A stretch of DNA of 11,866 nt from a virus (taxonomy: Monodnaviria > Loebvirae > Hofneiviricota > Faserviricetes > Tubulavirales > Inoviridae), in IMG/VR virus record IMGVR_UViG_2663762893_000001, one strand, 5' to 3'. Of this stretch, positions 1,734-2,937 are shown in pieces (the stretch's first letter is position 1; every line of letters begins with the position of its first letter). The notes below the pieces were generated by a model, which had not been told where the DNA came from, searched no databases, and saw only the letters and a program-made list of their open reading frames with translations. The position numbers and the translations under genes are program-made.

Positions 1734-1760
1734 CTTTAGCATAACGTCATTGTGCGAACC
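1734..1760 (-). other. Second, inverted dif-like site (candidate attP partner site)
   Basis: Minus-strand reading GGTTCGCACAA TGACG TTATGCTAAAG: 9/11 match to the dif XerC arm, 5-nt central region, 9/11 match to the dif XerD arm. Inverted relative to attL, 34 nt away. Confidence 0.55.
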
Positions 1761-1766
1761 AATTAA

Positions 1767-2870
1767 TTATTTCTTGTCTAATATAGTACTGCTTATATTA
1801 GAATTCTTAGCTGTAAAAAGCATATCTGCTTCTTGGTATATTTCACCTGAACCACCACTAAAGTTAAACTCGATGTTTAGGTCATTATAAGTAATGCTTG
1901 GAGAGTATTTTCTGTTTATTATAATATAGCCAACTGAATTTGCAGGAACTTCAACCCTTTCTTTCGGTTTTTCCATAAGATATCCATTATCATTAACAAA
2001 TTCCACATTGTATTTCTTATACACCCTTATTTCTTCTTCTTCTCTTTTCTTTTCATCTTTATAATCAAATGTATCAACATGTTCGGAAATATATTGAAAG
2101 TTTTTATATATTCTCCATCCGCCTGAAACTTTCAGTGCTTCTGATGTTTTATTAATTATTCTAAATTTGAACATTATTTGATTTTTTTCTATCTTGGCAT
2201 CTATTATTTCAATAGGGTATTCATTCGCTCTTAGATTGTAATTTTCAGTTATCAGTCCATTACCTATAGGATTAATCGAAAGTCCAGAATTGTACATATT
2301 GTTATAAATCATGTAGTTATATGCTTTCAATGGGCCCGCGAGAGGGTTGTCTTCTGTTTGGATACTGATGACCATATAACTGAAAAATGCAGCAAAAATA
2401 GCACCGCCTAAAATAAAAGAACCTGCACTCGGTGGCACTGAGTCTTTTGAAAGGTATGTTTTCCCGTCAGTATCTTCTGATCTTATGGAAGGCATGGTAC
2501 TTTTATCAAGAACTCTTGTTCCTTCAATCAAGAGCACCATGGATATTTTTTTATTTGCTAATATTCTATCTATCTTCACAAAAGAACCTTCGGTAGTTGC
2601 ATCATGATCACTTGCAATTACAGTACAAGACATACCGTTTGGGACTTTTATTTCTACATTTTTTTCTTTATCCTTACCTTTATTAAATACTGATGCATTT
2701 ATTACTATTGCATTGTCAGATATTGAGGTTTTACTCAAGGAGTTCCAACAGGATAAGTAAAGTTGTCTTTTCCTAAATATAGATAAAAACTTATTGAGGA
2801 CTAATGCCACAAAAAAAGAAGTAACTACTTTCAATGTATCAGTAATCAAGTCCGGCATCTTTTTTCTCAT
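1767..2870 (-). CDS. Hypothetical accessory (moron) protein, 367 aa, low GC, two predicted transmembrane segments
   Basis: Long ORF in strongly AT-rich DNA (roughly 30% GC by eye on sample lines, versus about 50% in flanking genes). Hydrophobic stretches VVTSFFVALVLNKFLSIF (N-terminal) and FILGGAIFAAFFSYMVISI (central); Lys/Asn/Glu/Tyr-rich C-terminal half; no catalytic motif recognised. Position and composition fit the unique accessory ORF I recall from CUS-1 (puvA), but I cannot verify identity. Confidence 0.7.
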   Translation of the reverse strand: MRKKMPDLITDTLKVVTSFFVALVLNKFLSIFRKRQLYLSCWNSLSKTSISDNAIVINASVFNKGKDKEKNVEIKVPNGMSCTVIASDHDATTEGSFVKIDRILANKKISMVLLIEGTRVLDKSTMPSIRSEDTDGKTYLSKDSVPPSAGSFILGGAIFAAFFSYMVISIQTEDNPLAGPLKAYNYMIYNNMYNSGLSINPIGNGLITENYNLRANEYPIEIIDAKIEKNQIMFKFRIINKTSEALKVSGGWRIYKNFQYISEHVDTFDYKDEKKREEEEIRVYKKYNVEFVNDNGYLMEKPKERVEVPANSVGYIIINRKYSPSITYNDLNIEFNFSGGSGEIYQEADMLFTAKNSNISSTILDKK

Positions 2871-2937
2871 TTTACTTAAAATCCAGTGTTTTAACTGATC
2901 AAAGATGGTCAGATAAAATGTAAAAATTTAGTATTTG

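Follow-up and report, generated by a model that had tools for sequence, protein, structure and literature searches.

CUS-1 of Escherichia coli RS218 (O18:K1:H7) and Ypfphi of Yersinia pestis are filamentous phages that integrate at the dif site and share the gene order repressor, pII, pV, coats, pIII (puvA), pVI, Zot-like pI and secretin, with two small open reading frames (ORFs) at the attR-proximal end. The same order is found in the Inoviridae record IMGVR_UViG_2663762893_000001 of IMG/VR, an 11,866-nucleotide stretch of DNA that is referred to below as the window. This report concerns ORF367, an AT-rich gene on the minus strand of the window (1767-2870) that encodes a membrane protein of 367 residues and lies between the attachment site of the phage and the phage core. 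Comparison of genomes identifies ORF367 as the cargo of an accessory hotspot and as a functional member of an unannotated protein family carried widely by mobile elements, and its product may be an exclusion or defence protein made in the lysogen.

Accessory loci of a related kind have been described in other phages. The variable loci that adjoin the regulator of Vibrio inoviruses are reported to be enriched in defence systems, and filamentous or tailless prophages of the Vibrionaceae combine conserved flanks with a swapped interior, for which homologous recombination in the flanks has been proposed (ISME J 2024, PMC11630473). Defence hotspots have also been described in P2 and P4 phages (Rousset et al. 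2022, as cited in PMC11630473). The locus reported here resembles the Vibrionaceae hotspots in that related small prophages share flanks, usually next to a transcriptional regulator, and exchange the interior. It differs in that the host belongs to the Enterobacteriaceae, the phage is CUS-1/Ypfphi-like, and the slot is bounded by attP2, the second of two dif-like sites, and by a conserved gene termed ORF140. It also differs in content: among its five cargos are two divergent alleles that belong to a single unannotated family of membrane proteins and are not recognised defence systems. The hotspot concept is known; the ORF367 family and the Enterobacteriaceae slot are not annotated.

Proteins with which ORF367 may be compared in function are the prophage-type inner-membrane proteins of superinfection exclusion and abortive infection, including HK97 gp15, T4 Imm, P22 SieA, lactococcal Sie2009 and lambda RexB. 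Like ORF367, these are encoded by single, AT-rich "moron" genes for membrane-anchored products, assumed to be expressed from the prophage, that lie next to the immunity region, vary strongly between related phages and lack an enzymatic domain. No sequence or fold relationship between ORF367 and HK97 gp15, T4 Imm, SieA, Sie2009 or RexB was detected in sequence and structure searches, and ORF367 is larger, with two immunoglobulin-like (Ig-like) domains that are predicted to lie on opposite sides of the membrane.

A slot for exchangeable cargo between attP2 and ORF140

The boundaries of the slot are defined by comparison with the prophage of E. coli UTI89. Positions 1-1762 and 2970-11637 of the window are about 99.2% identical to the UTI89 sequence, and nothing aligns across 1763-2969. 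Homology breaks at 1762/1763, which is the outer end of attP2 (1728-1762, minus strand), and at 2969/2970, where the stop codon of ORF140 (2972-3394, minus strand) lies 2 bp away. The 1,207 bp between the two breakpoints, about 31% GC and oriented on the minus strand, form a cassette that consists of a hairpin, an AT-rich leader of about 70 nt and the gene. In UTI89, the slot is filled by 1,227 bp of unrelated DNA with 33% GC, in which a different hairpin occupies the same place; each cassette has a hairpin and an AT-rich leader of its own. The UTI89 cassette encodes a protein of 369 residues that aligns with ORF367 from end to end at 29% amino-acid identity.

At least five alternative cargos occupy this slot in E. 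coli. Counted in complete genomes, the five types total 97: the ORF367 allele (367 aa) is found in 17 genomes, the UTI89 allele (369 aa) in 10, an AbiJ_NTD4 + DUF7014 protein in 18 (extract L011, 2224-2978), a Zn-ribbon "ECs_2282" protein with a 159-aa protein in 28 (L012, 1987-2916), and a DUF6953 protein with a PD-(D/E)XK nuclease in 24 (L013, 2360-2929). At a coverage of at least 80%, the prophage core is found in 98 genomes and the ORF140 flank in 126. The AbiJ-like cargo matches the PADLOC candidate PDC-S32 (4.5e-10) and the Zn-ribbon cargo has weak matches to PDC-S64 and Lar; none of the AbiJ-like, Zn-ribbon and nuclease cargos is a validated defence system. In strain KC-Dl-1 the PD-(D/E)XK nuclease is truncated.

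The right flank of the slot is conserved. ORF140, a conserved multi-pass membrane protein assigned to PHROG 4174 (function unknown), has 93-99% nucleotide identity across the 126 genomes, independent of the type of cargo, and its place is always between regulator and hotspot. The leftward, or lysogeny, string of genes reads repressor first, then ORF140, then cargo. By these alignments the slot is a recombinational hotspot bounded exactly by attP2 and the ORF140 stop codon, in which cassettes are presumably replaced wholesale by recombination in the conserved flanks. The cassette is also not confined to one phage. In the E. coli strain REF2 (L024, 2501-4396), a 98%-identical cargo and ORF140 are found in a different inovirus backbone. 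This backbone encodes a G7P-2 protein, its Zot and secretin genes differ, and a regulator of 60 aa takes the place of the 148-aa helix-turn-helix (HTH) repressor; the cargo copy lies downstream of another inovirus morphogenesis module. A cargo so nearly identical in another backbone implies that the cassette moves between phages, and the REF2 arrangement indicates module exchange between co-resident dif phages.

Since prophage cores that are almost identical have other cargos in this slot, ORF367 is dispensable for the phage life cycle, and by the same comparison it is inovirus accessory-hotspot cargo. The phage with the ORF367 cargo is found as an episome, and related cores are found with the other cargos. 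An earlier reading of the window, made from the sequence alone and referred to here as the sequence-only reading, had proposed an accessory gene that lies between attP and the phage core and serves no canonical inovirus function. That proposal is borne out by the genomes. Its description of the gene as "inserted" is right about the place and understates the situation, as ORF367 is one allele among those that fill a hotspot from attP2 to the ORF140 stop codon.

The base composition of the cassette sets it apart from its surroundings. The interval 1741-2937 has 31.3% GC and ORF367 itself 31.7%, with 26% at third codon positions (GC3), compared with 42.4% in the rest of the prophage, 47.2% in hipBA and 47.9% in the right flank. 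The ORF367 region is the lowest-GC 1.1-kb stretch in the window (minimum 0.310; mean of all such stretches 0.417, sd 0.037), and the roughly 30% GC that had been estimated by eye for an AT-rich minus-strand gene of 367 codons is thereby confirmed. RefSeq places the start of the gene at an internal ATG at 2858, giving 363 residues. The same reading had placed a GC hairpin on one side of the gene and a perfect palindrome on the other. Both structures fold far better than shuffled sequence, although the palindrome proves to be a 13-bp stem with a 5-nt loop. This stem-loop (2938-2968, minus strand) is part of the cassette, lies directly after the ORF140 stop codon and may act as an insulator, a terminator or an operator; its arms (2938-2950 and 2956-2968) form a perfect 13-nt inverted repeat around a non-palindromic loop, and it folds at -17.9 kcal/mol (z = -5.1 against shuffled sequence). 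The GC hairpin is likewise real, and it is the forked attP of the phage, described below, rather than just a flanking terminator.

The ORF367 protein and its family

ORF367 has two hydrophobic helices, at residues ~10-31 and ~151-172, in agreement with the two transmembrane (TM) segments of the sequence-only reading, except that the second is centred near residue 161 and not near 170. The first helix (TM1) is followed by the juxtamembrane motif FRKRQLY and an Ig-like beta-sandwich (37-139), and the second (TM2) by an alpha/beta sandwich (178-365). The AlphaFold2 model built with the family alignment (mean pLDDT 80.7) contains the same two sandwiches, with helices at 6-31 and 150-172. In the C-terminal domain, 50% of all residues are N, I, K, E or Y, compared with 25-29% in other proteins of the window, which bears out the Lys/Asn/Glu/Tyr-rich character that had been noticed.

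Searches with the sequence and the model return little beyond generic folds. Pfam, NCBIfam and PADLOC contain no family that matches ORF367, and PHROG 17621, annotated as of unknown function, is the sole match and extends from end to end; the earlier remark that no motif could be assigned therefore stands. Homology to the pI-pX inovirus families is likewise absent, as there is no Pfam match and PHROG 17621 carries no function. Structure searches with the model found generic Ig-like, CBM or Fn3 sandwiches and no enzyme fold, sequence searches of the PDB with the single protein and with a profile gave weak Fn3/Ig-like domain matches and nothing else, and Pfam searches of 70 family members gave marginal matches to Ig-like families (DUF11, FixG_C, DUF4352) alone. 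Neither megablast nor tblastn matched any phage record in GenBank, and a literature search on the protein accessions and on YPO2271/YPO2272 found no functional work.

The family is nevertheless large. A word-indexed search found 21 close clusters and a second word-indexed profile search added almost no further members, whereas an exhaustive search with a profile brought the number of representatives to 208 at E <= 1e-3, with 122 of them at E <= 1e-10, so that the family comprises at least 208 clusters at 50% identity. Nearly all members share one plan: a short N-terminus, either acidic or neutral, leads into a TM helix; the basic motif F-R-x-R-Q-L-Y and a domain of some 100 residues (the N-domain) come next; and a second TM helix at ~140-170 precedes a C-terminal domain (the C-domain). 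The N-domain has the conserved motifs N-x-G-K-x-K-E-K, I-D-R and S-E-D-x-x-G. The N-domain is clearly the better conserved of the two, with a mean pairwise identity of 28-39% against 17-20% for the C-domain. The cluster of ORF367 at 90% identity has 294 members (E. coli, Salmonella, Enterobacter) and that of the UTI89 allele 106, including E. coli RS218, Salmonella Typhi, Shigella and Klebsiella; all members of both clusters are annotated as hypothetical proteins.

The orientation of the protein in the membrane is predicted from charge. Over 70 members, the net charge is -0.3 before TM1, +2.4 after TM1 and -0.8 after TM2, which under the positive-inside rule suggests a short N-terminus outside, a cytoplasmic N-domain and a periplasmic C-domain. 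Cysteines fit this placement: those of the N-domain are sporadic and unpaired, and the C-domain has almost none. A cleavable signal peptide was considered and rejected, as there is no cleavage site of the AxA type and a conserved basic motif follows the helix.

Substitution patterns point to a gene that is maintained. ORF367 differs from the REF2 allele by 15 synonymous and 6 non-synonymous changes (dS 0.070, dN 0.0069), and the ratio dN/dS of about 0.10 is that of a functional gene under purifying selection; a pseudogene is rejected on this comparison. A decaying or functionless hitchhiker, in which the low GC would reflect foreign origin and nothing more, would be compatible with the lack of a known function and of a strong detectable promoter, and some copies are indeed frameshifted, namely that of Pseudomonas putida (L006) and that of strain 1434, which is truncated/frameshifted. 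Against this are the dN/dS value, the full-length and intact state of the gene in 17 complete genomes, motifs that are invariant across at least 208 clusters and the well-predicted fold (pLDDT as above), and this explanation is effectively excluded. On the evidence of conservation and distribution, ORF367 is a functional protein, and the unannotated family to which it belongs is widespread on mobile elements.

Genomic contexts and a possible role in exclusion or defence

Relatives of ORF367 were examined in about 13 genomic contexts; for two distant family members the contigs were too short to show any. Several relatives occupy the same attP-adjacent edge of other inoviruses, in Morganella (Rep_trans), Providencia (Phage_GPA) and Pseudomonas peli (Pf-like). 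Others lie directly after the gpU/X/D tail genes of P2-like prophages, at one metagenome locus and one locus in P. putida (the frameshifted L006 copy), and in the metagenome locus the relative stands between PDC-M38A/B (1.4e-260, 8.5e-79; AbiL-like) and PDC-S52 (1.1e-80). In an island of defence candidates, a relative is found between PDC-S06 (3e-160), accompanied by a protein with a weak Pfam NACHT match, and PDC-S31 (4e-40). Further relatives are carried on conjugative Enterobacter plasmids among toxin-antitoxin and integrase genes, at sites flanked by insertion sequences (IS) in Serratia and Pseudomonas, and beside dosCP on a metagenome contig that is similar to that part of the E. coli genome in its neighbouring genes.

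We favour the reading that ORF367 is an envelope exclusion or defence protein expressed in the lysogen, and give it a probability of roughly 0.45. It is favoured by the AbiJ-like sister cargo together with the defence-candidate neighbours found by PADLOC, by the placement in accessory slots of P2-like phages and inoviruses, by the autonomy of a single gene, by the position downstream of the repressor on the lysogeny strand, and by the wholesale replacement of alleles in which the faster-diverging domain is predicted to be periplasmic. In this view a single protein, produced by the lysogen and acting at the inner membrane, would counter phages or other mobile elements as they arrive. Specificity or recognition would reside in the variable periplasmic domain, and the conserved membrane-proximal and cytoplasmic part would be the effector, which might block the passage of DNA across the membrane or trigger an abortive failure of the membrane.

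A number of observations weigh against this. No homology to experimentally validated defence, exclusion or abortive-infection proteins was found, and PADLOC-DB v2 gave 0 matches for ORF367, the UTI89 allele and the 70 family members. The neighbours that PADLOC labels "PDC" are candidates and not validated systems, and the contexts from which the association is judged number only about 13. Carriers often have tandem or mixed inovirus arrays, so self-exclusion is not evident. Expression in the lysogen is assumed, and a scan of the cargo leader for sigma-70 promoters returned none that passed. The topology rests on the positive-inside rule, and use of the upstream ATG adds the N-terminus MRKK, which weakens that argument for the ORF367 allele.

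A more far-reaching form of the same reading is doubtful. In it, ORF367 would be the founding member of a new and widespread family of single-gene defence or exclusion factors with an architecture unlike any described system, two Ig-like sandwiches across the inner membrane joined by an FR-x-RQLY juxtamembrane switch. The hypervariable periplasmic domain would detect a component of the arriving phage or element, the conserved cytoplasmic module would block DNA entry or bring about an abortive collapse of the membrane, and filamentous dif-phages would spread the interchangeable specificity alleles in E. coli, Salmonella and further pathogens.

The attP-adjacent position of relatives in at least four inovirus lineages bears on a narrower explanation, competition specific to inoviruses, in which ORF367 would block superinfection, for example by occupying TolA or the pilus/secretin route, and the diversity of its alleles would follow that of pIII or of the receptors. 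A periplasmic location is predicted for the variable domain, and exclusion factors are known from the accessory regions of Pf phages. The family, however, also occurs beside P2-like tails, on conjugative plasmids, at IS elements and in islands of defence candidates that have no inovirus in the vicinity; tandem copies are common in carriers, one cassette lies downstream of another inovirus module, and the sister cargos of the slot are cytoplasmic AbiJ-like or nuclease-type proteins. We regard this explanation as unlikely.

The plasmid locus among toxin-antitoxin genes raises selfish stabilisation or addiction, whereby a membrane-active, toxin-like protein would penalise loss of the prophage or plasmid or tune the production of the phage itself. 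Toxin-antitoxin modules are frequent in inovirus accessory regions and ORF367 has two TM helices, yet at about 360 residues with two folded domains it is unlike the known small membrane toxins. No recurring partner gene, and in particular no conserved small one, was found across the contexts inspected. A type II toxin-antitoxin pair would have an adjacent partner that co-varies with the toxin, and the neighbours differ in every inspected context. ORF140 as a dedicated partner was also rejected, as it is kept whatever the cargo. Addiction is the least probable of the functional explanations considered here.

The sequence-only reading had named virulence, superinfection exclusion and anti-phage defence together as possible roles of a prophage cargo, and had suggested that the gene might be puvA of CUS-1. 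The genomic context favours defence or exclusion among these, and the identification with puvA does not hold. According to the review of Ypfphi, the product of puvA is the virion protein on which receptor binding depends (PMC4266046), and the RefSeq label "virulence factor PuvA domain protein" is among the features under the match to positions 4109-7789 of the window, which contains the pIII-like gene (6077-7789, plus strand). ORF367 lies on the opposite strand from this gene, at the attP end. As puvA is described as a virion protein and its label falls in the match that contains pIII, ORF367 is not puvA, which is the pIII-like gene for receptor binding in the structural block.

Nor is the prophage CUS-1 strictly speaking, for RS218 and UTI89 carry a different allele at 29% identity. 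The protein of RS218 falls in the cluster of the UTI89 allele, and the RS218/UTI89 cargo is a homolog of 369-374 residues; the attL-adjacent gene of these strains occupies the same position as ORF367, with no nucleotide similarity. In CUS-1 the ORFs adjacent to attL have been named orf1 and orf1a, with function unknown, and Ypfphi is reported to have other, unrelated ORFs at its attL end (PMC4266046). ORF367 and the RS218/UTI89 gene are divergent alleles of one family and not the same gene; to judge from its position, the RS218/UTI89 gene is probably CUS-1 orf1.

The remaining rival is lysogenic conversion, in which ORF367 would act on the dealings of the bacterium with an animal host or the environment through virulence, envelope remodelling or stress tolerance. 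The prophage family has been tied to in vivo fitness in E. coli K1 and Y. pestis (PMC4266046), and the alleles are found in clinical extraintestinal pathogenic E. coli (ExPEC), Salmonella including Typhi, Shigella and Enterobacter. The in vivo phenotype, however, was mapped to puvA, the pIII-like gene, and not to ORF367, whose inner-membrane anchor has no predicted reach to the cell surface. Relatives also occur in Pseudomonas and on metagenome contigs within phage or defence contexts, and the other cargos of the slot resemble phage-defence genes. We consider such a role improbable, about as much so as competition among inoviruses.

The phage unit, its attachment sites and wider significance

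Positions 1-1589 of the window contain hipB and hipA, followed by the prophage and then again by chromosome. The interval 1669-11233 is a temperate filamentous phage of 9,565 bp, of the CUS-1/Ypfphi type, integrated at E. coli dif. Its genes correspond to a full inovirus complement, and each canonical function is accounted for by an ORF other than ORF367. The RstR/CI-like HTH repressor (3491-3937, minus strand; HTH_3 1.6e-9, phrog_3557, a weak match to NCBIfam phage_RstR) is followed on the plus strand by pII (4109-5161), pV (5173-5490), small coat proteins (5493-6012), the pIII-like gene discussed above, the pVI-like gene (DUF2523; 7802-8089), the Zot-like pI (8093-9118), the secretin (9118-10362) and, at the attR-proximal end, two ORFs of 82 residues (10451-10699 and 10845-11093). 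By position, these two ORFs correspond to the YPO2280a/YPO2281 region, described as of function unknown (PMC4266046), and a homolog of the second is present in the Morganella inovirus, at the equivalent end.

The attachment sites account for the GC hairpin. The left junction of the prophage, attP1/attL (1669-1701, plus strand), is a dif-like site of the form GGTGCGCATAA-TGTGCGACTCG-TTATGTTGAAA. The site attP2, as read from the sequence, is a second and inverted dif-like site, GGTTCGCACAA-TGACG-TTATGCTAAAG. The right boundary, attR (11234-11261, plus strand), is an exact 28-bp E. coli dif with 0 mismatches. Between 1666 and 1764 on the plus strand, attP1 pairs with the inverted attP2 and a GC stem lies between them, giving a forked hairpin of the CTXphi attP(+) type. 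Folded as single-stranded DNA, the (+) strand of this interval reaches -30.3 kcal/mol (z = -6.4), and a bulge separates the paired XerC-like arms from the paired XerD-like arms. The GC hairpin within it has arms of 24 nt (1688-1711 and 1723-1746) and an RNA fold of about -37 kcal/mol (z = -7 to -8 against shuffled sequence). On the minus strand, the GC stem is followed by a UUUU run. This U-run lies after the stem on the cargo strand, so the cargo transcript probably ends at the attP hairpin, and the forked hairpin probably terminates both the cargo-gene and the hipA transcripts.

With inverted dif-like sites, a dif-mimicking fold, and an attP-like site and a dif at its two flanks, the "GC hairpin" is, as judged from these features, the forked IMEX attP of the phage. 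It resembles that of CTXphi in that two inverted dif-like sites fold in the (+) single strand into a forked hairpin that mimics dif, and in that integration leaves an attP-like attL and a regenerated dif. The arm and spacer sequences differ, and a short GC hairpin serves here as the stem between the sites; in CTXphi the dif-like sites are separated by roughly 90 nt. Features for single-stranded DNA integration have been noted in the attP sites of CUS-1 and Ypf (review, PMC3089051). A dif-like site, a GC hairpin and "...CATTGTGCGAA" are found in the same layout at the end of the cargo gene in the Morganella (L010, 9171-9520) and Providencia (L018, 11075-11520) inoviruses, whose Rep proteins are unrelated.

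The phage also exists as a circular episome in at least one strain. Window positions 1666-11247 match, gene for gene, the circular record NZ_CP128883.1 (9,565 bp, "untypable plasmid") of E. coli TUM14759, and the distance from 1669 to 11234 in the window is likewise 9,565 bp. The junction in this record reads ...CCATTGGTGCGCATAATGTGCGACTCGTTATGTTGAAAAGG..., a dif-like site identical to that at the left prophage junction. The cargo gene is carried on this circle and in both copies of the tandem array of E. coli SCU-101, which makes it part of the phage unit. Many members of the cargo's protein clusters are found on contigs of about 9.5 kb. The SCU-101 array also includes a unit of 8,433 bp that has no secretin gene and has small ORFs directly after a 378-aa Zot-like protein, and the adjoining hipA is cut down to its N-terminal domain. 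Several prophage copies, including those of E. coli IAL7255 (L014, 4134-6287), L013 and L025, are decaying, with an IS in pII or a frameshifted secretin or pII gene, so not every carrier is able to produce virions.

Whatever the function of ORF367, these results correct its likely mis-association with puvA and virulence, and the slot, with its exact limits at attP2 and the ORF140 stop codon, is a place to mine for further cargo of unknown function. If the family is protective, the small filamentous prophages that integrate at dif in ExPEC, Salmonella (including Typhi), Shigella and Enterobacter would carry interchangeable immunity cassettes, which would bear on phage therapy and on the question of why these prophages persist. 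A membrane-spanning, non-enzymatic architecture would then be added to the repertoire of bacterial defence.

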